Made by a program: the position numbers and the translations under genes. The notes under the pieces are model-generated. The model did no database searches. It was not told the DNA's origin and was given only the letters and a program-made list of their open reading frames with translations. Source: Prolixibacteraceae bacterium (lineage in GTDB: Bacteria > Bacteroidota > Bacteroidia > Bacteroidales > Prolixibacteraceae). From it: a DNA stretch of 64,000 nucleotides. Of this stretch, positions 9,505 through 39,030 are shown in pieces. The stretch is from positions 69,581 through 133,580 of the forward strand of contig JALNYZ010000009.1 of assembly GCA_023229575.1 (NCBI GenBank). The letters are read 5' to 3'. Positions within the stretch are counted from its first letter, which is position 1. Each line of letters starts with the position of its first letter.

Positions 9505-10071
9505 ATGGAGGAAGAGCTAAAAATATGGGAAAAAATCCGGAATGGTGATACCATGGCTCTAAAGGTATTACACGACAGGTACTATTACCAGTTGTACCTG
9601 TTTGGTAAAAAATTATGCGACAATCGCTCTGTTCTTGACGAGGTTGTTTCAGACTGTTTCATTAAACTTTGGACTAAACGCAACGATCTGGTAATCGAAC
9701 GATCTGTCAAATCGTATCTGTTTTTGATGTTGCATAACGGATTGATTGATGTACTACGCAGAAAGGACCATACCCTTTATTTGGAAGAAGGCGCCATGCC
9801 CGATCTGCCTGATGAAGGGATGCACAGCGAGCTGGATCTTTACGCAAGGCTCTACAAGGCGCTGGAAAAGCTCCCCGATCAACGTTGCCGGATCCTTGAA
9901 CTGGCAGTATTCGAATCGTGTAGCTATGCCGGGATAGCGGAGAAGCTCAATATTTCGGTAAATACGGTAAAGACCCAAATGGGGCGCGCTTACAGGTTTC
10001 TTAAAAATGAACTGGATCCCAAATCGTTGCAGTTGTTGTTTATACTCAAAGCCCTCAATAAGAAATGCTAA
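9505..10071 (+). CDS. ECF-type RNA polymerase sigma-70 factor
   Basis: 188 aa. Region-2-like segment DEVVSDCFIKLW. Region 4 HTH LPDQRCRILELAVFESCSYAGIAEKLNISVNTVKTQMGRAYRFLK. Confidence 0.85.
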   Translation: MEEELKIWEKIRNGDTMALKVLHDRYYYQLYLFGKKLCDNRSVLDEVVSDCFIKLWTKRNDLVIERSVKSYLFLMLHNGLIDVLRRKDHTLYLEEGAMPDLPDEGMHSELDLYARLYKALEKLPDQRCRILELAVFESCSYAGIAEKLNISVNTVKTQMGRAYRFLKNELDPKSLQLLFILKALNKKC

Positions 10072-14991: not shown

Positions 14992-15060
14992 CAGAGAATA
15001 ATTTGCATGGTAATACTGATTTGATAACCGCATAATTAATTAACCAATAAAACAATCAAC

Positions 15061-15149
15061 ATGAAAAAAAGTGAGCCATTGAAAGATCCTATGATCTCGC
15101 TAAAGAACAATATGCCGAATTAGGTATAGATACCGATCAGGTAGGATAA
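15061..15149 (+). pseudogene. Truncated, frameshifted N-terminal relic of an L-rhamnose-isomerase-like gene
   Basis: ATGAAAAAAAGTGAG is followed, one frame over, by A-IERSYDLAKEQYAELGIDTDQVG-stop. This matches the RhaA N-terminus pattern (E. coli [23 protein letters not shown]). No further homology follows nt ~15146. Confidence 0.5.
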
Positions 15150-15309
15150 GGTAATTATTACAATTGAAGTTCACTAGTCCAGACGATATTTTTAAGATAT
15201 GTAATACTCAATAAAAACGTAAACTAAAAGAAATTGATTTGTAATTTCTCTATTCCCTGTCACCCTTTTCCTCATTTCATGCGTCATATCTTAAGAAATA
15301 CAGCACTTA

Positions 15310-16308
15310 ATGGACAATACACAGGATTCCTACTGGGAAAAAATGGCAGGAAAACTTCACGGGGAACTAAGCAAGGAGGATGAAGTTGGTTTCGATGAAC
15401 TAATCTCTGATCAAGGTCGTTTATTGGAATTTAATAGGGTACGAAGTATTCGGGACAACCTATCCCTGGCCGGTTCTTGTCCGATTGATGGCAAGGAGAA
15501 ATCATGGAGCAGGGTGCAAGCCTCTATTCGGTGGACCAAAATTCGATGGATCAATACAACACTGAAATATGTGGCAATTGTTGTAGTAGCCTTTGTAGCC
15601 GGTATATTGCTTCAATCCAATTTAACTGGCAGCACAACGCTGCACTTCTCCGAAATACATATCCCATACGGTCAAATGGGCCAGCTCACACTGAGCGATG
15701 GAACAGAGGTATGGCTGAATTCCGGAACTACCCTTAGGTATCCCGACCGGTTCGGAACCAGGAGCAGGAATGTAGAGGTAATTGGGGAGGCCTTTTTTAA
15801 AGTAGCCAAGATTCCTGATAAGCCTTTTACTGTCAATTCGACAGATTTAAATATAGAGGTTCTGGGCACATCTTTCAATTTCTCAGCCTATCAGAGGGAC
15901 AATTTCTCTTCAGTTACACTGGTTGAGGGTAAAGTTGCCATTCAGGACAATGAGGGGGTAACCATTGCCCAACTCCATCCGGGTCAGATCGCCAAAAAAG
16001 TCAATAGTTCAAAAAAAATGGACATTAATGAGGTAAATACAACCTCTTATGCTGCATGGACTGATGGTAAAATGCTTTTTGAAGATGAAAGGTTGGATCA
16101 GATTGCTTTTAAATTGGAGCGATGGTTCAATGTGGAGATCTCTTTTGCCGATCCTGAGTTAAAGTCCAAACGGTTTACGGGCACCATACTGAAATACAAA
16201 CCGGTGGATCAGATCATGCAGGCGCTGGAACTTCTTGCCCCAATCAAATTTATACACAAAATAAATACCAATGGAAAAGATCAAATAACCATATTTAAAC
16301 GAACTTAA
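15310..16308 (+). CDS. FecR-family anti-sigma factor (transmembrane sensor)
   Basis: Short cytoplasmic N-domain, a single TM (YVAIVVVAFVAGILL), and a periplasmic FecR / DUF4974-like C-terminus (EGEAFF.V, V.V.GT.FN..AY). It lies directly upstream of an STN-bearing SusC. Confidence 0.85.
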   Translation: MDNTQDSYWEKMAGKLHGELSKEDEVGFDELISDQGRLLEFNRVRSIRDNLSLAGSCPIDGKEKSWSRVQASIRWTKIRWINTTLKYVAIVVVAFVAGILLQSNLTGSTTLHFSEIHIPYGQMGQLTLSDGTEVWLNSGTTLRYPDRFGTRSRNVEVIGEAFFKVAKIPDKPFTVNSTDLNIEVLGTSFNFSAYQRDNFSSVTLVEGKVAIQDNEGVTIAQLHPGQIAKKVNSSKKMDINEVNTTSYAAWTDGKMLFEDERLDQIAFKLERWFNVEISFADPELKSKRFTGTILKYKPVDQIMQALELLAPIKFIHKINTNGKDQITIFKRT

Positions 16309-16339: not shown

Positions 16340-16414
16340 AAAAAGGCGGTGAAGATGTTCGTACCATCTTCACCGCAGCATGTGATTCAAACAAACCCTT
16401 TTAAATTAATTTAA
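16340..16414 (-). ncRNA. Candidate cis-antisense sRNA (DonS-like) opposite the susC 5' leader
   Basis: Perfect 12-bp hairpin at 16346-16376. On the minus strand it is followed by CTTTTTGG; on the plus strand it has no U-tract. The minus-strand box TAAATTTG (16428->16421) fits TAnnTTTG. The architecture recurs at 33597-33683. The ends are predictions only. Confidence 0.35.
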
Positions 16415-16427
16415 ATCATACAAATTT

Positions 16428-19400
16428 ATGAAAATGCACCAAATTATCCTTGGCGATAAAAGGTCGTGGATAAAAAAACTCAGAATAATGAAACTAACTG
16501 TCATTCTGTTGTTTGGAAGTATGGTTGCCATGAGTGCAACTACTTATTCTCAGACTGCCAAACTGAATATCTCTTCTAAAAACGCCGCACTGATTGATGT
16601 TTTCAGGAACATTGAAGATCAAAGCGAATTCTATTTTTATTTCAACAAAGAGGACTTAAAGACAAAAGAAGCTGTGACTGTTGAAATGAAAGATGCACAG
16701 ATCAATGACGTTCTGGATCAGGTTTTGGCAAAAACCGGATTGGAATATAAAATTATTGACCGGTATGTTGTTGTCAAAGAGAAGGGAAGTGATGAACCAG
16801 TCATTACCATGCAAGTGGCGCGTAAAATAACAGGAAAAGTCACTGACACCACAGGCGGGGCATTGCCCGGTGTGACTGTTGCCATCAAAGGAACAACAAC
16901 AGGTGTGATCACCGATAACAACGGTAACTATTCTTTGTCCAATGTTCCAGATAATGCTGTTTTGGTTTTCTCATTTGTTGGATTGAAAAACCAGGAAATT
17001 CCAGTAGGAGGCAAATCGGTTATCAACGTATCGATGGCAGAAGAAGCGCTGGGGATCGAAGAGGTTGTTGTAACAGGTTATTCTACTCAACGAAAGAAGG
17101 ATATTACTGGTGCGGTAGCCGTTGTGGATGTTCAATCCATGAAGGCAATGCCTTCTGGATCTGGTGTTGTTGCCCTCCAGGGGCAGGCATCGGGTGTCAA
17201 TATTATCAGCAGTGGGGCTCCGGGGGCGGCCAGTCAGATTTATATCCGCGGTATCGGAAACTTTGGAAATGTTGCCCCGCTCGTGTTGATTGACGGAGTA
17301 GGGGGAAATCTAGAGGATATCAGCGCCAACGAAATTGAGTCCCTCCAGGTGTTGAAAGACGCCGGATCCGCTGCTATTTACGGTGTGAGAGGGTCCAATG
17401 GTGTAATTATTGTAACCACCAAAAAAGGTAAAACCGGCGCTCCGACTGTTTCCTATGATGCTTATGCTGGCCTTCAGTTGCCTTTCAGCGGCAACCCGCT
17501 GAATATGGCAAACACAGAGGAGTATATAAAATTATTTAAATCCGCTATTCCTTACCACGGCTTCGATAATGGTATTCCTGATTACATGTACAGGAGTGGT
17601 AGCGGCGCTGCTGCCTGGGCTATGGCGGGCGACCCTGCTGTAGATCCGGCAAAGTATAAATATGATCCAATCACCCTCGGTACCAATTATATCATCGCGA
17701 AGGTCAATAAGCAAGGAACAAACTGGTACCAGGAAATCTTTAAGCCAGCAGTAACCAGCAACCAGGATTTAACCGTAAGTGGCGGAACGGAGAAGGCCAA
17801 ATACCTGCTTTCCCTGGGTTACCTGGATCAAAAAGGCACGCTTATTGAGACTTATCTTAAAAGGTATTCATTTAAGGTAAATACTGAATACAATGTGGGC
17901 AAGCATATCCGCATTGGTGAAAATTTATATATCATCCGTAAAGCAGGCAATGGTTATACCAACACTTCAGAGAGCAATGCAGTTTCGAACGCCATGTTGA
18001 TAAACCCGCTGTTTCCGGTATACGATATCTCCGGGAAACAATTTGCAGGCGCCTATTCTTACCCCATTACCACTATGCTGGCGTACGGTTCAAACCCAGT
18101 CGCTAACCAGAAACTGACGAATAACAATTATGACCATTCCCTTCAGTTAACTGGTAACATATATGCAGAAATCTCCTTCTTAAAACATTTTGTGGCGCGC
18201 ACCAGTATGGGATTAAGCCTGGGCAATTCAGAAGGAAGTGGATTTGCCTACAACCGCTATTTTGATGCCCAGTCCTTTGCAGTCCCCAACAATCTGACTT
18301 TATCCATGGGGAATAGCTGGAGTTATCTTTTCACAAATACTTTGAAATACGAAAATACTTTTGGCGACCATAAACTGTCAGTATTGGCTGGTTCTGAAGC
18401 AAATGAAGGTATGTCAAAAAGTGTTTATGGATACAGGCAAAATTTTCTGGTCAGTGATGCAGACTATCTCCTGTTGCAGAACGGCAGTATCGATGGGATA
18501 CAAAACGGCAGCGGCAAATCCCATGGGACCCTGTTTTCCCTTTTTGGCCGCGCGGATTATTCTTACCTGGATAAATACCTTCTGGCACTGACCATCCGTC
18601 GAGATGGCTCTTCATCTTTCGGGCCCAAGAGCAGGTATGGCTATTTTCCTTCAGTATCTGTAGGATGGCGCTTATCCGGCGAATCATTCCTGAAAAATAT
18701 TTCGTGGTTAAACGATTTGAAGATCAGGGCCAGTTATGGTCAGGCAGGTAATGCGAGCAATGTTAATCCCAATAATGCATACTCTGTCTTTGGAACAGGA
18801 GTCGGTAAATCCTATTATGATATAGCCGGTAGCAATAACAGCTCGACCCAGGGTTTTTATGCAAGCCAGCTAGGAAATGACCTGACTTCATGGGAAAAGG
18901 ATATTATCACCAATTTCGGACTTGATGGTACGATACTGAACAACAAGATTGAATTTTCTGCGGAGTATTACAAAAAATCAATTGAGGGATTGTTGTTTGA
19001 CCAGCAATTACTTGCCACCGCCGGTGGGGCTGCTGCACCAAAAGTGAACATTGGCGACATTCAGAACAATGGATTGGATATTTCTGTGACCTATCGGGAT
19101 AAATTCAGCAAGGATTTGAGTTTTAACATTACAGCCAACATTACGAGTTATAACAACAAAGTAGTTAGTATCCCTGGTCAGGCAGGCTATTTTGATACAG
19201 GCGCCCTACGCGGGGTCGGTAATGTTGTTCGTAATCAGGTAGGTCATCCGGTGGGCGCTTTCTTTGGGTACAAAGTTATTGGAATCTTTAAGGATGCTGC
19301 TGCAGTTGCCGCTGCGCCTGCCCAGTTGGACAAAAGGCCGGGGGTATTTCAATACGATGATACCGATGGTAAACCTGGTATAACAGCTGCTGACCGAGTT

Positions 19401-19919
19401 TTCATGGGTAGTCCAAATCCTGATTATACATATGGGGTGAATATCGGACTGAACTATAAGAATTTTGACTTCTCAACTGTTTTCTATGGCTCTCAGGGGA
19501 ATGAGATATTTAACCAAACAAAATTTTATACCTATTTCACAAGCTTTTTCCAATGCGGTCTGAATAGAAACCTGTTGAATGCCTGGTCACCGACCAATAC
19601 CGGTTCGGATATCCCTGTATTGTTAAGTACCGCCAGTTTCAGCGAAAACACGGTTCCAAATTCATGGTTCATTGAAGATGGTTCCTTCTTCAAATGCAGG
19701 TTAATTACACTGGGTTATACGTTGCCCCCTTCCGTGCTTAAAAAGCTGACACTTCAGAAATTAAGGGTATATCTGCAGGCGGTCAACCCCTTCCAGATTA
19801 CAAAATACAGTGGATTGGATCCTGAAATTCCGGGCAGTACATCAGCCTTTGGAATTGACGTAGGTAACTATCCCAACAACCAAAGGCAATTTAATGCGGG
19901 TATAAGTTTATCATTCTGA
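16428..19919 (+). CDS. SusC/RagA-family TonB-dependent transporter with N-terminal STN signalling domain
   Basis: 1163 aa. STN domain (TYSQTAKLNISSKNAALIDVFRNIEDQSEFYFYF...), then a CarboxypepD_reg-like domain (ITGKVTDTTGGALPGVTVAIKGTTTG), a plug (IESLQVLKDAGSAAIYGVRGSNGVIIVTTKKG), and a barrel ending ...NAGISLSF. Confidence 0.95.
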   Translation: MKMHQIILGDKRSWIKKLRIMKLTVILLFGSMVAMSATTYSQTAKLNISSKNAALIDVFRNIEDQSEFYFYFNKEDLKTKEAVTVEMKDAQINDVLDQVLAKTGLEYKIIDRYVVVKEKGSDEPVITMQVARKITGKVTDTTGGALPGVTVAIKGTTTGVITDNNGNYSLSNVPDNAVLVFSFVGLKNQEIPVGGKSVINVSMAEEALGIEEVVVTGYSTQRKKDITGAVAVVDVQSMKAMPSGSGVVALQGQASGVNIISSGAPGAASQIYIRGIGNFGNVAPLVLIDGVGGNLEDISANEIESLQVLKDAGSAAIYGVRGSNGVIIVTTKKGKTGAPTVSYDAYAGLQLPFSGNPLNMANTEEYIKLFKSAIPYHGFDNGIPDYMYRSGSGAAAWAMAGDPAVDPAKYKYDPITLGTNYIIAKVNKQGTNWYQEIFKPAVTSNQDLTVSGGTEKAKYLLSLGYLDQKGTLIETYLKRYSFKVNTEYNVGKHIRIGENLYIIRKAGNGYTNTSESNAVSNAMLINPLFPVYDISGKQFAGAYSYPITTMLAYGSNPVANQKLTNNNYDHSLQLTGNIYAEISFLKHFVARTSMGLSLGNSEGSGFAYNRYFDAQSFAVPNNLTLSMGNSWSYLFTNTLKYENTFGDHKLSVLAGSEANEGMSKSVYGYRQNFLVSDADYLLLQNGSIDGIQNGSGKSHGTLFSLFGRADYSYLDKYLLALTIRRDGSSSFGPKSRYGYFPSVSVGWRLSGESFLKNISWLNDLKIRASYGQAGNASNVNPNNAYSVFGTGVGKSYYDIAGSNNSSTQGFYASQLGNDLTSWEKDIITNFGLDGTILNNKIEFSAEYYKKSIEGLLFDQQLLATAGGAAAPKVNIGDIQNNGLDISVTYRDKFSKDLSFNITANITSYNNKVVSIPGQAGYFDTGALRGVGNVVRNQVGHPVGAFFGYKVIGIFKDAAAVAAAPAQLDKRPGVFQYDDTDGKPGITAADRVFMGSPNPDYTYGVNIGLNYKNFDFSTVFYGSQGNEIFNQTKFYTYFTSFFQCGLNRNLLNAWSPTNTGSDIPVLLSTASFSENTVPNSWFIEDGSFFKCRLITLGYTLPPSVLKKLTLQKLRVYLQAVNPFQITKYSGLDPEIPGSTSAFGIDVGNYPNNQRQFNAGISLSF

Positions 19920-31369: not shown

Positions 31370-31547
31370 GAAACTACAGGCCATAACTTTGTTAATTCTT
31401 GTTAAAAAATGCAATGATCAGTTTTATATAGCCCTCTGATCACATGGGTTTGTAATTTAGACTGAATATTTGAACTTTTCCGGGAGTAATTTCTGAGAAA
31501 TAGTTAGCTTTATACTTTAGGGAACTAACTATCTTAACAAACGTCCT

Positions 31548-32156
31548 ATGAAGAAGCAGGATAACAACGACTATCATGCTATTTGGGAATCGTTTATAAC
31601 AAACGGCAATCATGAAGCCATAGGAATGATCTATTTTGGTCATTACGACTTGCTGTATAATTTTGGTTTGAAGTATACAAAAGATGTTCAGGTCATTGAA
31701 GATGCAATTCAAAATACCTTCGGTTATTTTCTTAAAACTGGCCGCAAACTAAGCCCCGTCACCAATTTACGCTCGTTTCTCCTTCAATCATTTCGCCATC
31801 GGTTGCTTCTCGAACTTAAACGCAGAAGCAGAATTTTTCACATGCATGCGATTGAAGCTAAAAACGTTGGTTCACACGAGCCGGAAGTCAATGAAAAAAT
31901 AGAACAGGAATGGAGCAGCTGGCTAGGGAAAAAAATTTCCAAATGCATGGAACGTCTTACCGGGAAGCAGAAGGAGATACTCTATCTGCGTTTCCAATGT
32001 GACCTTTCCTATGCTGAGATTGCATCCATGCTGGATATCACGGTCGATTCGTGCTACAAGATGACCTATCGTTCCCTCAAAGAGCTTCGGGAGGATATAG
32101 AAGAATTGGAATCCATCGGGCATCGCTTGATTATGTTTTTCATGATAAAATCCTGA
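31548..32156 (+). CDS. ECF-type RNA polymerase sigma-70 factor
   Basis: 202 aa. Region 4 HTH LTGKQKEILYLRFQCDLSYAEIASMLDITVDSCYKMTYRSLKELR. It lies upstream of a FecR/SusC(STN) set. Confidence 0.8.
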   Translation: MKKQDNNDYHAIWESFITNGNHEAIGMIYFGHYDLLYNFGLKYTKDVQVIEDAIQNTFGYFLKTGRKLSPVTNLRSFLLQSFRHRLLLELKRRSRIFHMHAIEAKNVGSHEPEVNEKIEQEWSSWLGKKISKCMERLTGKQKEILYLRFQCDLSYAEIASMLDITVDSCYKMTYRSLKELREDIEELESIGHRLIMFFMIKS

Positions 32157-32257: not shown

Positions 32258-32414
32258 TCCAGATTTCATTTTTGCCTGACTCTTATACTAAACTAAGCTT
32301 ATCAGATACAAAACACATCCCGGTAAACCGGAACGAATGAGAAAACAATCAGCCATAAGCGGATCGGCTATACCGATCTAAACTATTTGATCTTAAAATT
32401 CAAAATTTTAAAAA

Positions 32415-33578
32415 ATGAACCTTAATCGTTTCAACTCATATAGTGCAGAGGATTTTGTTATCGATGAAATATTCTGTGAGATTGTTGGTGGGGGTACACC
32501 TGCCGTTCAAAATCTAAAAGAACAGTTTCCATTTAAGAAACATGAGATTGATTTAGCTGTAGAGATGCTTAACAAACTGCAGAGTTTGGAATTTCAACAA
32601 TCTCCTGAAAAAAAACTTGAGCAGTGGGACCAAATTCTTAAAAATAAGCGAAAATCCATCAGGTTCACGATTTTCAGGATTGCGGCCGCTGTGCTTTTGA
32701 TTATCGGAAGTACCGCCATCGCCTATTATCAACTGTCGAGACACTCCATTATCAACCAATTAGCCTCCACAAAGGAGGTTAATTATGCAAATGCAAGGTT
32801 GATCTTGGTTGACGGAGAGCAAATCGACATTGGCCAAAACCGGCCAAATATTAAATATTCAGCCGATGGGGCCGGTGTTTTAGTCAATGATTCAACCGAA
32901 AAGCGGCAATCGGTCAATACGGATGGGTTTAATCAGGTCATCGTTCCCTTTGGTCAACATACCTATTTAATCCTGTCTGACGGAACAAAGGTTTGGATCA
33001 ACTCGGGATCACGCCTTGTTTATTCCCCGGTTTTTAAAGGGAAAAGCAGGGAAGTTTTTTTGGAAGGGGAGGCCTATTTTGAAGTTACGAAAGACGAAAA
33101 TAAACCTTTTTATGTTGGAACGAATGCATTCCGTGTAAAAGTATACGGAACGAAGTTCGATGTACAGGCTTACAAACAAAACAATGAATACAATACCATT
33201 TTGATGGAGGGAAAAGTAAGTCTTGAAGCAAACAAGGGTGGGATAATGGCGAAGGAACAATTTCTTTACCCGGATCAAAAGGCCACGCTATCAGATAATA
33301 AGAAAGATTTTCTTGTTTCTGAAGTCGCCAATATTGAAAACTATACCGCCTGGAAAGATGGATACCTGCTCTTTAAAAATGAGGCTTTTCAATCCATCTT
33401 AAAACGGGTATCCCACTATTACAATGTTGATATTGAACTTAATGATGAGATTCAGGTTAGACGGTTGTCCGGAAAACTTGACTTAAAAGAGGACCCGGAA
33501 AGGGTACTGGAAGGTTTGGCCTTAATTTCGAAAATCCGTTTTGTAAAAACCAATAATAAATATCGTTTTTATGAGTAA
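32415..33578 (+). CDS. FecR-family anti-sigma factor
   Basis: Single TM (IFRIAAAVLLIIGSTAIAYY) and a FecR/DUF4974-type periplasmic part (EGEAYFEV, V.VYGTKFDVQAY). Confidence 0.85.
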   Translation: MNLNRFNSYSAEDFVIDEIFCEIVGGGTPAVQNLKEQFPFKKHEIDLAVEMLNKLQSLEFQQSPEKKLEQWDQILKNKRKSIRFTIFRIAAAVLLIIGSTAIAYYQLSRHSIINQLASTKEVNYANARLILVDGEQIDIGQNRPNIKYSADGAGVLVNDSTEKRQSVNTDGFNQVIVPFGQHTYLILSDGTKVWINSGSRLVYSPVFKGKSREVFLEGEAYFEVTKDENKPFYVGTNAFRVKVYGTKFDVQAYKQNNEYNTILMEGKVSLEANKGGIMAKEQFLYPDQKATLSDNKKDFLVSEVANIENYTAWKDGYLLFKNEAFQSILKRVSHYYNVDIELNDEIQVRRLSGKLDLKEDPERVLEGLALISKIRFVKTNNKYRFYE

Positions 33579-33596
33579 CTAACCGTTTTGTAGATG

Positions 33597-33669
33597 AAAA
33601 AACCGGTTAATGGTCGAAACATTAACCGGCTAAAGTAAATCATGCCGCTAGGCAACATGTTTAATTAAT
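33597..33669 (-). ncRNA. Candidate cis-antisense sRNA (DonS-like) opposite the susC 5' leader, locus 2
   Basis: 10-bp hairpin CCGGTTAATG/CATTAACCGG (33603-33629), followed by TTTTTT on the minus strand only. The minus-strand box TACTTTTG (33683->33676) overlaps the susC ATG in the same register as at 16421-16428. Confidence 0.35.
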
Positions 33670-33682
33670 TCAATTCAAAAGT

Positions 33683-36600
33683 ATGAAAAAAGATCCAAAT
33701 GATTGCTCTTTCCTCTTGGGAAAGAGGTTAAAGATTAATTGGCTAGCTATGAAATTGTTAACGATTTTGCTCTTTACCGGTTCGATGACATTGTCGGCCA
33801 GTTCCTATTCCCAGAAGACAAAAATTGACTTGCACCTGCAAAACTCTTCATTGTCAGAAATATTTAGTTTGATTGAAAAATCGAGCGACTTTATTTTTTT
33901 CTACAATGATGAGATTTTAAATGATAAAGTCAGAAAATCGGTTTCTGTGGATGGAGAGAAGATCGAGGTAATTCTTGAGCAGTTGTTTGAGGGAACAAAT
34001 ATTGCCTACAAGATTGATGACAGGCAGGTTTTCCTATACAACAAGGATGATTTAAAATCACTTGAAACCCTCGTTTCCATTTCCTTAGTTCAACAACCTA
34101 AGAATAAGGAGGTTTCAGGAACTGTGCACGACTCAAAGGGACAACCATTGCCCGGGGCCACCATCCTGATCAAAGGGACAACCTTGGGTATTGTTACCGA
34201 TATTGATGGAAAATTCAGGTTTAATGTTCCGCTCGATGCGAAAACACTGGTAATTTCCTTTGTCGGTATGAAGTCACAGGAAATCGCGATTGCAGCGAAA
34301 AGAACTTTCGATGTTGTGCTGGCAGAGGAGACAGTTGGATTGGAAGAGGTAGTGGCTGTGGGGTACAGCATTCAAAAGAAGGAGTCTGTTGTAGGCGCCA
34401 TCTCACAAGTAAATAATGCTGCATTGATGCAGTCAGGATCCCCCAATATTACCAGTTCCTTGTCGGGTAAGCTTTCTGGTGTTTTGACCATACAGCAAAC
34501 CGGCTTACCCGGACAAAGTCAATCTGAAATTATTATCCGGGGTTTGTCCAGTTGGAGTGGTTCAGCGCCATTGATCCTGATTGACGGTGTCGAACGTGAT
34601 TTTCAGGATATGGATCCCAATGAAGTCAATACGATTTCGGTGTTGAAGGATGCGTCTGCCACTGCAGTATTCGGATCCAAAGGCGCCAATGGGGTTATTC
34701 TTGTAACCACCAAACGTGGGAAATTGGGCAAGCCTCAAATTACTTTTACAGGTTCTGCAGGGGTTGAGTCAGCCACAAGATTGCCCTCCTTTGTTGATTC
34801 ATACACCACCTTGTCAATGATGAATGTTGCCAGGATGAATTCTCAGAGGTTCAAAGAACTGACCCCGCAAAATATCCTCAATGAATACCGTAATCCTTCC
34901 TCCCCGTTAAAAGCAATTCAATATCCGAGTGTCGATTGGATCGGTATGCTTACCAAACCATTTGCCCCATCGGCCAATTCCAACCTTAGTGTTACCGGTG
35001 GTACAGAGTTTGTAAAATATTTTTTGATGCTTGGGGACCAGTATGAAGGCAGTTTATTAAAATATGCAAAAAGTGGATATTCTGATGCCAATTATTGGTT
35101 TCACCGGTTTAATTACCGGGCCAATCTGGATTTCACCCTCTCCAAAACAACTCAGTTGTCGCTCAACATAGGAGGCGAAGTAGGGATTAGAAACCAGCCA
35201 ACCGAAGCCTTTTATGGTGACTGGAAAGACTTCTATGGTGCAGCGGTAAGCGATTTCCCCGCAAATTATCCCGATTGGGTATTGAAACAGATTCCGGATA
35301 CCGACTATCCCAATGCCACTGGTTTAAGGAGAGCGGCCACTACCGGAAGCTTCATTCTGAATCCATGGAGCAACGTAAACACAGGTTCTTTCTCACGATC
35401 TTTGGATTCTAAGTTGTTTACCGACCTTGTTTTGGACCAAAAACTCGACTTTATTACGAAAGGGTTATCATTGAAAGGTAAAGTCGCGCTAAATACTTAC
35501 TACAATCACCAGATATTGTATGCCAATTACACCAACCCAGCCTATCGGATCATCTGGTCCAGGGTAGGAGTGGACGCGAATGGCGATGGAATTGTTGATC
35601 AAAACCCCTGGGAACGGGATGGACAGGGCCAGGAATATTATACCCCGCCCAAACTGGATATGAATGTAGGAGGATTGACCGGTAGTTATTACTACGATCG
35701 TTATTTCGAGGGCTCCTTAAATTACAGCAATACTTTCGGGAAACATTCTGTTACAGGATTGGCGCTGATCAATTTTCAGGAAAAAGACCGTGGAACAGAA
35801 TTCCCCTACTACAATGAAGCGCTCGTTGGCAGGGCAACTTACGATTATTCACATAAATATTTTGCTGAGATTAACATCGGATATACCGGCTCTGAAAGGT
35901 TTGCACCAAGTAACCGATTCGGGTTCTTTCCTTCAGGCGCCATCGGATGGACCATCTCAGAGGAGAAATTCTTTAAAAATAACGTAGCCTGGATGAACAA
36001 GCTGAAGTTGCGCTACTCCGACGGAGTGGTTGGTAGTGATTACGCCGCTAGCCGATGGCTTTACAAGAGCGATTTCTATTTAGACTATGCAGGAATTGTC
36101 ACTGAAGACAAAGGTGCAAATACTTCTGCCCAGTGGGAAGAGGCAAGGAAAAGGGACCTGGGGATCGAAATAGGTATTTTCAAGAACCGTTTCACATTCA
36201 GTGTGGATTTGTTCGACGAACAGCGTTCTAAAATGCTGATGACGCCGTTGAGTACAACCTTCCTGATTGGCAATTCATTTAAAGACCTGAACATTGGCCG
36301 TATAAAAAAACATGGAATAGAAGTTGAGGCTGAGTACAATAATACGACGGCCAACAATATCAACTATTTTATTAAGGGAAACTTTTCGTTCAATGAAAAC
36401 CGCATTTTATTCAGGGACGATCCGGTTTATGCCCCCGACTATACCAAGGCTGCGGGTAAACCCTTGGGCGCCCAATTAAATGGGGAGACACTGACCGGTA
36501 CCGGATATTTTACCTCAGTGGATGACGTACACATCAATCCTTCCCCAATCGCATTGGAGAAACTTTATGTAGGCGATTATAAATTTTTGGATTACAATGC

Positions 36601-37153
36601 TGATGGGATTGTCAGTAGTGCAGACGGTCATGCCATCAAAGGTCAGGCTTATGCACCGATTACCTATTCTTTCTCAACCGGGTTTAGTTACAAAGGATTT
36701 AATTTAAGTATCATGTTCCAGGGGAACTATGGTAAGAACATACAAATGAGCCCGGTTAGTGAGATGGAATTTTATACCGGTCAACCCCGGGTGCACATGT
36801 CACAAATGGATTATTGGAGACCCGACAACCAGGATGCAACCCATTCTACATTGCGTATCAGCGCTTCCGAGGCGGGCGATATCATTTATACATGGGGGCC
36901 GCTTTTGCAGGACCGGTTGTGGAGGAATGCCTCTTACCTGCGGTTAAAGGAGATTTATGCCGGCTACAATATCAATTCAGGTTTGATCAAGCGATTGACA
37001 GGCATATCAGGGATGCTTGTCTATGCCAATGCCACCAATGTGCTGACATTTACCAAGTTGCTCAAAGAGTGGGACCCTGAAGTCAAAAGTATAGGCACGG
37101 GATGGTATCCCCAGTTAAGCCGTTACAATCTTGGTGTGAAGTTTACTTTCTAA
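33683..37153 (+). CDS. SusC/RagA-family TonB-dependent transporter with STN domain
   Basis: 1156 aa. STN (SYSQKTKIDLHLQNSSLSEIFSLIEKSSDFIFFY), CarboxypepD_reg (VSGTVHDSKGQPLPGATILIKGTTLG), a plug (ISVLKDASATAVFGSKGANGVILVTTKRG), and an ending in ...NLGVKFTF. Confidence 0.95.
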   Translation: MKKDPNDCSFLLGKRLKINWLAMKLLTILLFTGSMTLSASSYSQKTKIDLHLQNSSLSEIFSLIEKSSDFIFFYNDEILNDKVRKSVSVDGEKIEVILEQLFEGTNIAYKIDDRQVFLYNKDDLKSLETLVSISLVQQPKNKEVSGTVHDSKGQPLPGATILIKGTTLGIVTDIDGKFRFNVPLDAKTLVISFVGMKSQEIAIAAKRTFDVVLAEETVGLEEVVAVGYSIQKKESVVGAISQVNNAALMQSGSPNITSSLSGKLSGVLTIQQTGLPGQSQSEIIIRGLSSWSGSAPLILIDGVERDFQDMDPNEVNTISVLKDASATAVFGSKGANGVILVTTKRGKLGKPQITFTGSAGVESATRLPSFVDSYTTLSMMNVARMNSQRFKELTPQNILNEYRNPSSPLKAIQYPSVDWIGMLTKPFAPSANSNLSVTGGTEFVKYFLMLGDQYEGSLLKYAKSGYSDANYWFHRFNYRANLDFTLSKTTQLSLNIGGEVGIRNQPTEAFYGDWKDFYGAAVSDFPANYPDWVLKQIPDTDYPNATGLRRAATTGSFILNPWSNVNTGSFSRSLDSKLFTDLVLDQKLDFITKGLSLKGKVALNTYYNHQILYANYTNPAYRIIWSRVGVDANGDGIVDQNPWERDGQGQEYYTPPKLDMNVGGLTGSYYYDRYFEGSLNYSNTFGKHSVTGLALINFQEKDRGTEFPYYNEALVGRATYDYSHKYFAEINIGYTGSERFAPSNRFGFFPSGAIGWTISEEKFFKNNVAWMNKLKLRYSDGVVGSDYAASRWLYKSDFYLDYAGIVTEDKGANTSAQWEEARKRDLGIEIGIFKNRFTFSVDLFDEQRSKMLMTPLSTTFLIGNSFKDLNIGRIKKHGIEVEAEYNNTTANNINYFIKGNFSFNENRILFRDDPVYAPDYTKAAGKPLGAQLNGETLTGTGYFTSVDDVHINPSPIALEKLYVGDYKFLDYNADGIVSSADGHAIKGQAYAPITYSFSTGFSYKGFNLSIMFQGNYGKNIQMSPVSEMEFYTGQPRVHMSQMDYWRPDNQDATHSTLRISASEAGDIIYTWGPLLQDRLWRNASYLRLKEIYAGYNINSGLIKRLTGISGMLVYANATNVLTFTKLLKEWDPEVKSIGTGWYPQLSRYNLGVKFTF

Positions 37154-37173: not shown

Positions 37174-39030
37174 ATGAAAAAATCAATCATATTATTATGT
37201 ACAGGGCTTTTTTTAATATTCATCAGCTCGTGCAAAGATTACCTGGATAAGTCCCCCGAATCCACCTTCACCGAGGAAGATGTATTTTCGAACTACAGTA
37301 CCTTTAAAACTTATTTTGACGGGCTATACAAGGGGAAAACAGGGCGCAATACGACCGCGACCAATTACTCAAACAACACCAATATTTTTGTCAATTTCAG
37401 CTTGTACTTTGGAGGTATTCCCAGGCATTTCAGTCAGGAACAGATGACCGATATGAGTGATGCCGGTTGGATCAGGGAAAATGCATCCATCAAAGGGGGG
37501 AGTTTAGGGACCAATATCAGCCTTTTTTATGATGACGGTTTCCAGCGCCCCATTTTTAAAACCTCGTTCCATACGCTAAGGATTGCCAACATGGCCTTGG
37601 AGAAAGTACATCTGCTGAAAGATGTCAAACAGGAAGAGATTGATGATATTCTGGCACAATCGCATTTCTGCAGGGCATTTTCCCATTTTGCCCTGTTCCG
37701 TTACTGGGGACCCATGCCTTACATTACTAAGGTAATAGGGCCCGATGACCAATGGGACATTCCACGTCTGTCGAAATACGAAACATGCCGTAAAATTTGC
37801 GCCGATTTGGATACAGCCGCTACCATTTTTGAAAAAATTCACCTGATGCGAAGGGATGTTGCAGGGGTTGGCGAAGTAGGGCACCTTAGCAGTCCGGATC
37901 AGTTTCGTCCGAGCGGGGCATTGTGTAAAGCGCTGAAAGGACGCGTATTGTTGTATGCCGCCAGTCCATTGAACAATAAAAATGGCGTGAAAGACTGGGA
38001 AGATGCGGCCAAAGCCAATTGGGAAGCAATACAAATTGCCCTACAAAACGGTTATTTTCTGTTACCCAAGAAAGATTATCAATTAAATTGGGTTGGATCA
38101 AATTATACGGACGAATCGCTTTGGTCATGGACTCCGGGCTTATTGAAACATGACGATCAAATGCTTACTTTCCTGAGCAATGGCGTTTTCTCAGCTTCAG
38201 CAAATGTTGCAGGGGATAGTCCTACTCAAAATTGTGTAGATAAATTTGAAACCGCATGGGGCGACCCGCTCGATACACAGGCAGACAGGGATGCTGCTAC
38301 CGCGCTTGGCCATTACAAGGAACAGGATCCATACAAGAACAGGGAGCCCCGTTTCTATATCGATATCATGTACAACGAAGCGCCGATTCCGGGTTATGTA
38401 ACGGCCAAGATCTATACGCAGACCGTAAATGGTGTGATTACCTATTCGGAACTTCTGGATCAAAAATATCCGGGTATTACCTCTACAGGTTATTATGAGC
38501 GAAAACTTTGGGGTGGGCAAAGTGTGAAGAATAACATTGCGGTCATGCATTCTGACCCATTCATACGCTTGGCAGAACTTTATCTGAATTATGCCGAAGC
38601 TGCGAACGAAGCGTACGGGCCCAATACGCCTGCCCCTGGCGCTACCCTTACAGCGGTTCAGGCCATTAACCTTGTAAGGCAAAGGATTGGACACGTTGAT
38701 GTTCAGTCCAGGTTTACTACAAGCACAGAGGTTTTCAGGCCGAGGATCAAAAACGAACGTACCATTGAGTTGGCCTTCGAAGGGCACTACTATTTCGACG
38801 AAAGAAGATGGATGGATGCCCCGGTCGCAATGGGTGGCCCGCTGATGGGCATGGCTATCGAAAAAGTACCGGTCAGTTCGACCTATCCGATCGGTTACAA
38901 ACACACGCGTGTACCTTTAAATGCAACCCGTCAGAGCACGTGGAAACCTGAAATGTATTATTTGCCTTTCAGACAAGCCGATTATTTTAAGATGAAAAAA
39001 TTCGATGCCACACTAAACCCACGTTGGTAA
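37174..39030 (+). CDS. SusD/RagB-family lipoprotein
   Basis: Lipobox IFISSC followed by KDYLDKSPES. C-terminal motifs LAELYLNYAEAANEAYG and IKNERTIELAFEGHYYFDERRW. Confidence 0.9.
   Translation: MKKSIILLCTGLFLIFISSCKDYLDKSPESTFTEEDVFSNYSTFKTYFDGLYKGKTGRNTTATNYSNNTNIFVNFSLYFGGIPRHFSQEQMTDMSDAGWIRENASIKGGSLGTNISLFYDDGFQRPIFKTSFHTLRIANMALEKVHLLKDVKQEEIDDILAQSHFCRAFSHFALFRYWGPMPYITKVIGPDDQWDIPRLSKYETCRKICADLDTAATIFEKIHLMRRDVAGVGEVGHLSSPDQFRPSGALCKALKGRVLLYAASPLNNKNGVKDWEDAAKANWEAIQIALQNGYFLLPKKDYQLNWVGSNYTDESLWSWTPGLLKHDDQMLTFLSNGVFSASANVAGDSPTQNCVDKFETAWGDPLDTQADRDAATALGHYKEQDPYKNREPRFYIDIMYNEAPIPGYVTAKIYTQTVNGVITYSELLDQKYPGITSTGYYERKLWGGQSVKNNIAVMHSDPFIRLAELYLNYAEAANEAYGPNTPAPGATLTAVQAINLVRQRIGHVDVQSRFTTSTEVFRPRIKNERTIELAFEGHYYFDERRWMDAPVAMGGPLMGMAIEKVPVSSTYPIGYKHTRVPLNATRQSTWKPEMYYLPFRQADYFKMKKFDATLNPRW

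Follow-up and report, generated by a model that had tools for sequence, protein, structure and literature searches.

The 64,000-nt stretch of contig JALNYZ010000009.1 (positions 69,581 to 133,580; assembly GCA_023229575.1) from an uncultured groundwater Prolixibacteraceae bacterium, referred to here as the window, carries two polysaccharide utilization loci (PULs) that open with a FecR-type anti-sigma factor gene followed by a susC gene of the STN (transducer) type. At the second of these (locus 2), the FecR stop (33578) and the susC ATG (33683) are separated by an intergenic gap of 104 nt, and this gap very probably harbors a DonS-like, PUL-associated cis-antisense small-RNA gene, as judged from its sequence signals and by analogy with BTnc123, an RNA of Bacteroides thetaiotaomicron. 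The complement of the predicted RNA would be the stretch between fecR and susC that begins 20 nt past the fecR stop and ends 12 nt short of the susC ATG. Its parts, its counterpart at the first PUL (locus 1), and the genes that flank it are as follows, in window positions:

33598..33671, minus strand: predicted cis-antisense small RNA of ~74 nt, with ends set by analogy with BTnc123
33676..33683 (read 33683 to 33676), minus strand: putative -7 promoter box TACTTTTG, matching the sigma-ABfr consensus TAnnTTTG
33641..33659, minus strand: predicted 5′ hairpin CAUGUUGC-CUA-GCGGCAUG of 8 bp, with two U.G pairs that become C.A mismatches on the plus strand
33601..33631, minus strand: predicted terminator hairpin, with a core at 33603-33629 of 10 Watson-Crick pairs and up to 12 pairs with G.U
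33597..33602, minus strand: terminator U-run (A6 on the plus strand)
33683..37153, plus strand: STN-domain susC, the presumed target of the antisense RNA (Pfam STN, CarbopepD_reg_2, Plug)
32415..33578, plus strand: FecR-type anti-sigma factor gene (Pfam FecR and FecR_C)
16340..16428, minus strand: locus 1 counterpart, with putative box TAAATTTG at 16428 to 16421 and a predicted RNA from 16416 to ~16340
16346-16376 and 16340-16344, minus strand: predicted locus 1 terminator hairpin and its U-run

The motif TAnnTTTG is the -7 element recognized by the primary sigma factor of the Bacteroidetes, sigma-ABfr (Ryan 2020, PMC7366714). The first two bases of TACTTTTG (T-A) lie opposite the "TA" of the susC "TATG", and this placement, with the TA of the box on the TA of TATG at the first in-frame ATG, is referred to as register 0. 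The plus-strand sequence around the susC start is CAAAAGTATG at locus 2 (33676-33685) and CAAATTTATG at locus 1 (16421-16430), which bears out the CAAAnnTATG string that the original prediction, made from the letters of the window, had reported for both loci. That prediction also gave the coordinates and the register of the box correctly, but had the box end on the A of the ATG; on the minus strand it begins opposite that A. Neither motif is enriched in the window as a whole, with five copies of CAAANNTATG for 4.7 expected from shuffles and 57 of TANNTTTG for 60. Since overall counts equal expectation, and the window's register is confined to two of 36 gene starts, namely both FecR-to-STN-susC junctions, the non-random feature is the position of the box. 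These are the only such junctions in the window; the third susC (39047) lacks an STN domain and, as had been claimed, its start does not have the box in this register.

The signals for the other end of the RNA are equally strand-specific. On the plus strand, the terminator hairpin reads CCGGTTAATG-gtcgaaa-CATTAACCGG (33603-33629), with AAAAAA before it and CTAAAG after it, so that a U-run follows the hairpin on the minus strand only. A terminator scan returned a minus-strand match (33631 to 33601, 12 pairs followed by TTTTTT) and none on the plus strand; the gap length, the hairpin and its one-sided T-run had all been described correctly beforehand. A bidirectional intrinsic terminator of fecR was considered and ruled out on the basis of the CTAAAG that follows the hairpin on the plus strand and the lack of a plus-strand match in the scan. 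A small open reading frame (ORF) within the RNA was likewise rejected, as the sole ATG-initiated frame has no stop before the terminator.

Folding also favors the minus strand. The predicted locus 2 RNA forms two hairpins at -25.0 kcal/mol (z -5.1), versus -20.9 kcal/mol for the plus strand, which loses the 5′ hairpin (CATGCCGC-tag-GCAACATG on the plus strand, 33641-33659) because two U.G pairs turn into C.A. At locus 1, the corresponding values are -25.1 and -21.1 kcal/mol, and both window RNAs contain minus-strand G.U pairs whose plus-strand equivalents are C.A. A comparison of four relatives of the locus 1 gap shows minus-strand G.U pairs at four positions of the terminator stem, plus a single compensatory change (U-A to C-G). 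Two relatives of the locus 2 gap were found: L086, whose FecR is 89% identical, and L001, a Prolixibacteraceae metagenome-assembled genome (MAG) at 67%. In both, the gap is ~95% conserved from the A-run to the ATG, while the stretch from the fecR stop to the A-run diverges; conservation thus begins at the predicted 3′ end of the RNA. The stem of the 5′ hairpin is invariant in these relatives, and one loop base differs in L001. The exact gap sequence had no match in the searched genome contigs.

The arrangement recurs well beyond the window. A survey was assembled from FecR genes of one genome per species (80 loci), together with relatives and the two window loci; 84 FecR-to-STN-susC junctions were located by tblastn, and each was scanned for the box from the fecR stop to 90 nt past the susC ATG. 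TAnnTTTG boxes numbered 72 on the minus strand versus 0 on the plus strand. A box was found in register 0 at 42 of the 84 junctions and within 10 nt at 56. At 11 others, a second register, 4 nt further in, was observed, with the start reading CAAATGTA and the SusC ORF beginning MYK, mostly in the Sphingobacteriia. In this second register, the ATG falls within the "nn" of the box, such that the minus-strand consensus is kept and the plus-strand string altered; most of these loci belong to Pedobacter or Mucilaginibacter (e.g., L008, L013, L017, L023). Gaps with a hairpin and U-run showed a similar asymmetry (50/84 on the minus strand, 2 on the plus strand), and the implied RNA lengths are mostly 68-118 nt. 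By comparison, neither register occurs at any of 262 other ORF starts of the same loci, sigma and fecR starts included, and 0.4% of all ATG trinucleotides in these loci carry it. A compositional artifact, which the original prediction had named as a possible refutation, is excluded by these counts. By class, the signature is present at 20/32 junctions in Bacteroidia, 23/33 in Sphingobacteriia (both registers combined), 4/9 in Chitinophagia, and 2/6 in Flavobacteriia, and it is absent from two high-GC, apparently non-Bacteroidota FecR loci (L093, L094).

Two further sequence features emerged from the surveyed junctions. First, TT[AG]GGTTAA is overrepresented near the 5′ end of the predicted antisense RNAs, ~4-12 nt in, with GGTTAA present in 12 of 56 versus 0.9 expected. 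The window has a weaker variant, AATTAA (33660-33668, minus strand). On the plus strand the motif reads TTAACC, about 17-26 nt 5′ of the susC ATG; it may be part either of the RNA or of the leader or promoter of susC. Second, the terminator hairpins share a consensus, CCGGrrGTG-loop-CACyyCCGG, across loci. A CCGG-type stem base is found in 39% of survey hairpins versus 5% of terminator-like hairpins elsewhere, and a TG/CA stem top in 39% versus 4%. In addition, two FecR/susC gaps of Prolixibacteraceae, both with the box, contain an exact copy of a 20-mer from the BTnc123 terminator (L095:1492-1511 and L098:2527-2546). This shared consensus and the exact 20-mer suggest either common descent or a bound factor.

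A characterized member of this kind allows the predicted signals to be compared with RNA. BTnc123 lies at 2760701-2760823 of NC_004663.1, opposite BT_2196; it has transcription start sites (TSSs) at 2760701 and 2760705 and a PM1 promoter, is Northern-validated, and is labelled "PUL type A", as are BTnc009, BTnc077, BTnc136, and BTnc249 of B. thetaiotaomicron (PMC7366714, Supplementary Data 2). An exact 42-nt string of BTnc123 had no match in representative genomes because these differ from it by one single-nucleotide polymorphism, and it was the terminator 20-mer that led to the locus, in L096 (a MAG of B. thetaiotaomicron) and in L097 (a Bacteroides from mouse gut). In both, susC starts with CAAAGTTATG, which puts the minus-strand box TAACTTTG in register 0. 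The published sequence of strain VPI-5482 is restored by a T>C difference at L097:458.

Public raw RNA reads (runs X51-X53) mapped to L097 reveal a discrete RNA, with a depth of 300-530 over positions 353-468 and a depth of zero in susC. All read pairs share one orientation. The 5′ ends cluster at L097:461 (224/498), where the reads run into the reverse complement of an adapter that we take to be the Illumina small-RNA 5′ adapter; this assigns the RNA to the minus strand. It begins 5 nt beyond the G of the box, at position -12 relative to the susC ATG, with a first base that equals the published TSS at 2760705. The 3′ ends lie at L097:358, five U's past the hairpin and within the U-run. As in the window, the plus strand has CAAAnnTATG at the susC start, with TAnnTTTG in register 0, and a GC-rich terminator hairpin beside the anti-sigma stop. 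BTnc123 differs in being longer (104-122 nt), in an RNA body whose sequence is unrelated to that of the window RNA, and in its target, since the 22 codons that precede the signal peptide in the window susC have no counterpart in BT_2196. Apart from these points, the layout matches base for base, giving predicted ends of 33671 and ~33598 at locus 2 and of 16416 and ~16340 at locus 1. The originally predicted antisense RNA of ~73 nt, with a promoter on the susC start codon and a minus-strand terminator, is thus supported by the box consensus, the survey, the G.U pairs, and BTnc123; the original prediction did not connect it with the published DonS family.

The survey also bears on whether the first ATG of susC, the one that the box overlaps, is the true start. 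The window susC ORF opens with MKK, and its 22-codon extension precedes the signal-peptide Met at 33749-33751. In 61 of the 84 surveyed loci, the signal-peptide Met is downstream of the first ATG, at a distance of 60-69 nt in 40 of them, and the susC frame stays free of stops for 60 nt or more 5′ of the signal Met in 70% of loci versus 19-26% for the other two frames. That this frame is kept open points to translation from the overlapped first ATG. In BT_2196, the overlapped ATG is directly followed by an apparent signal peptide.

Several observations concern the extension itself. SusC ORFs linked to FecR and carrying STN usually have 20-23 codons (MKK...) before the signal Met (...L[LR][IV]MKLT...), as at 33683-33751 and 16428-16490 in the window, and the antisense promoter is located at the start of this segment. 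Within it, a hairpin, CTCTTTCC-tcttg-GGAAAGAG, is found at 33706-33726, with a locus 1 equivalent at 16450-16475; in L001 its stem is identical while the whole loop is replaced (aaaat). The extensions of 40 loci (57-72 nt long) are more structured than shuffled sequences, with a mean z of -1.64 on the plus strand and -1.03 on the minus strand, versus -0.36 for segments inside susC.

How such an RNA might act can be sketched from its position. By analogy with BTnc123, RNA polymerase would start at ~33671 (susC ATG-12) and stop at ~33598, yielding a ~74-nt RNA that would pair without mismatch with the leader between fecR and susC, as far as position -12. In the basal, uninduced state, transcripts that read through the sigma and anti-sigma genes into susC would be countered by two routes. 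In the first, a duplex over the leader beside the start codon would block translation initiation and/or trigger cleavage and decay. In the second, head-on transcription and polymerase occupancy would interfere at the susC start region. Either way, the SusC transducer would stay low until transcription driven by the extracytoplasmic function (ECF) sigma factor outran the antisense RNA. Both expression in this organism and repression of susC are what we infer, and RNA pairing is given an even chance of being the main route of repression.

This scheme presupposes sense RNA in the gap. In B. thetaiotaomicron, insertions in the anti-sigma genes BT1618, BT4249, and BT4356 are polar on the downstream sus-like genes, across gaps of 51-161 bp (Martens 2009, PMC2709373), and BT1619 and BT4357 are susC genes with antisense RNAs (PMC7366714, Supplementary Data 2). 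In a further run (X54, mapped on L097:150-1000), presumed sense coverage, with strandedness assumed, was 50-80 in fecR, ~16 in the gap, and ~5 in susC. Such a stepwise drop would fit partial termination or processing at two points, the hairpin and the start codon. Taken together, the polar insertions and this coverage indicate that sense transcripts seem to cross FecR-susC gaps.

It is possible, albeit unlikely, that the antisense promoter is functional but its RNA a by-product, with polymerase at the susC start occluding or colliding with sense transcription, and the terminator merely shielding fecR from antisense read-through. Such a role would fit the parts that are tightly conserved, i.e., the box and its start-codon register, as well as RNA bodies that share no sequence and the two-step drop of B. 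thetaiotaomicron sense coverage, first at the hairpin and then at the start codon. Weighed against it are DonS, which when supplied in trans reportedly repressed its PUL, the B. thetaiotaomicron reads, in which the RNAs accumulate highly as discrete species, and the conserved, minus-strand-specific 5′ hairpins and enriched GGTTAA 5′ motif; a discrete, abundant RNA with these features suggests selection on the RNA itself.

Much less probable is that the conserved string CAAAnnTATGAAAAAA of the plus strand and the hairpin act as signals of the sense strand and that the TAnnTTTG match on the other strand is incidental. An A-rich leader is typical of Bacteroidetes start regions (PMC7366714) and ATGAAAAAA is itself conserved, both of which a sense signal would accommodate. 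It would not explain why the string is missing from all 262 other gene starts, those of sigma and fecR among them, or why the second register, CAAATGTA, keeps the minus-strand consensus and not the plus-strand string. Moreover, the plus-strand hairpin has C.A mismatches and no U-run, and the minus-strand RNA of B. thetaiotaomicron begins 5 nt past the box. Finally, the arrangement is not due to chance: a promoter-like octamer and a hairpin could arise in an AT-rich intergenic region, and window-wide counts of both motifs do equal the shuffle expectation, but a register shared by both window junctions against a background of at most 0.4% per start, a box at 42-56 of 84 independent junctions, and strand asymmetries of 72:0 for boxes and 50:2 for terminators leave this explanation a negligible probability and refute it.

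Other observations do weigh against a repressive antisense RNA in the window. Some antisense/PUL pairs of B. thetaiotaomicron correlate positively, making a repressive role uncertain (bioRxiv 10.1101/2023.02.16.528795), and the mechanism of DonS has been called unknown (PMC11697453). Both window loci have a TTTG at -33, 11-12 nt 5′ of the box; this element is unconserved in L001, B. thetaiotaomicron, and the survey, and is not claimed as part of the promoter. In L001 one stem pair is mismatched and the U-run is weaker, and the locus 2 hairpins showed no compensatory change, three near-identical sequences offering too few changes for covariation to be assessed. The window sequence was found only in groundwater DNA metagenome runs and in no RNA run. 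Lastly, the sense/antisense overlap is of presumed extent. Wastewater RNA contigs, when aligned to L087, a gut homologue, matched just parts of fecR and susC and gave no information.

The surrounding genes identify both loci as real PULs, since SusD and genes of the glycan-hydrolase type lie downstream; these encode GH3, GH31, an arabinofuranosidase, beta-helix proteins, and a BT_3987-like domain protein. The remaining genes of the two loci are listed below:

31548..32156, plus strand: ECF-type sigma factor gene, locus 2 (Pfam Sigma70_r2/r4_2)
37174-39030: SusD gene, locus 2, 3′ of susC
15310-16308: fecR, locus 1
16428-19919: STN-susC, locus 1

The FecR gene of locus 1 has no adjoining sigma gene (region 14992-15309); its upstream neighbor is ribulose-phosphate 3-epimerase, and the nearest ECF sigma gene (9505-10071) is 5 kb upstream. 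At locus 2, the box TAACTTTG occurs on the plus strand at 31384-31391, 157 nt 5′ of the ECF sigma gene, and is a candidate housekeeping promoter for it by analogy with B. thetaiotaomicron, where housekeeping promoters have been reported for 24 of 26 PUL sigma genes (Martens 2009, PMC2709373). The gap between the sigma and anti-sigma genes contains a further minus-strand hairpin with a T-rich tail (32316-32335), and a GGAAC pentamer resembling an ECF -35 element is found on the plus strand at 32330-32334, upstream of fecR. The latter might be part of an ECF-dependent promoter for a fecR-susC transcript. A plus-strand promoter of ECF type (GGAAC-N16-17-CGT) was sought by eye in the fecR-susC gap, and nothing convincing was seen.

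PULs with an ECF sigma/anti-sigma pair decide the glycan diet of the Bacteroidota, and antisense RNAs opposite susC have so far been known from two gut Bacteroides species. The survey indicates, at the level of sequence, that the same device is present in such PULs of environmental lineages, in at least four classes. More tentatively, an antisense housekeeping promoter over the susC start could be an ancestral, phylum-wide module of trans-envelope-signalling PULs that, with further conserved parts, forms a switch. Such parts may include the fixed TA/TATG register (in Sphingobacteriia, CAAATGTA), the GGTTAA 5′ motif, the CCGGrrGTG...CACyyCCGG terminator, and the structured 20-23-codon SusC extension. 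If so, ECF-driven sense expression and the presence of housekeeping polymerase on the start codon would be mutually exclusive, and the module would be no peculiarity of gut Bacteroides but one of Bacteroidia, Sphingobacteriia, Chitinophagia, and Flavobacteriia. Three aspects may go beyond the literature searched, namely the four-class spread, the constant placement of the promoter on the start codon, and the additional conserved parts, although Cao 2016 may show some of this already. In practical terms, CAAAnnTATG plus a minus-strand terminator after fecR is a signature usable for annotating these RNAs in any Bacteroidota genome, and it could guide the choice of tractable species for mechanistic work. 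For the window alone, the outcome is annotation rather than discovery.

The closest known system is that of DonS in Bacteroides fragilis, an antisense small RNA opposite a susC homologue in a PUL with an ECF sigma/anti-sigma pair, with its own housekeeping-type promoter and terminator, as predicted in the window. The family is described as PUL-associated cis-antisense RNAs of 78-128 nt that lie opposite susC homologues and repress them, as summarized in PMC7366714 (citing Cao et al. 2016, J Bacteriol 198:2410). Type A members span 76-140 nt, BTnc136 being the 76-nt RNA (PMC7366714, Supplementary Data 2). In B. thetaiotaomicron the antisense count is up to 32, with both anti-correlated and correlated RNA/PUL pairs (bioRxiv 10.1101/2023.02.16.528795).

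The window element shares the position and terminator of this family and has a putative promoter box of its kind. Its predicted signals are all on the minus strand of the 104-nt gap in a sigma/FecR/STN-SusC/SusD PUL; the sigma-ABfr "PM1" box sits at the window susC in the same register as the BTnc123 box, with the window TSS placed by analogy; and the terminator (a 10-12-bp hairpin plus U6) is present on the minus strand only. The predicted length of ~74 nt is close to the published 78-128 nt (76 nt for BTnc136) and to an overall range of roughly 75-140 nt. No sequence or covariance homology was detected: there is no Rfam family, nothing in the window reached the Rfam gathering score, and 33540-33760 gave only far sub-threshold chance matches. 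An alignment of the two window RNAs (W1, W2) with BTnc123 has a mean column identity of 44%, mostly in the terminator. This does not exclude membership, because the published family is defined by position and not by sequence. For the same reason, namely that members share position and shape rather than sequence, a joint covariance model of loci 1 and 2 is not meaningful; what the window RNAs have in common is limited to AT-rich sequence near the promoter and the shape of the terminator, and such a model would describe generic terminators.

The differences from DonS are the following. DonS belongs to a gut Bacteroides, whereas the window derives from groundwater; the window PUL has hydrolases of the plant- or microbial-glycan type (GH3, GH31, BT_3987-like domain) and is not a proven host-glycan PUL; and the window RNA is predicted from sequence, with similarity to DonS-family RNAs only in its promoter and in terminator shape. 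In the same phylum, the FopS family of B. thetaiotaomicron, with its protein RbpB, also comprises small RNAs that control susC-type genes post-transcriptionally (PMC11697453). In contrast to the window element, which is cis-encoded and locus-specific, FopS RNAs are mostly trans-encoded, resemble one another in sequence, and involve an RNA-binding protein. The predicted window RNA is a new, DonS-type member from a groundwater Prolixibacteraceae, of a kind already known from gut Bacteroides.

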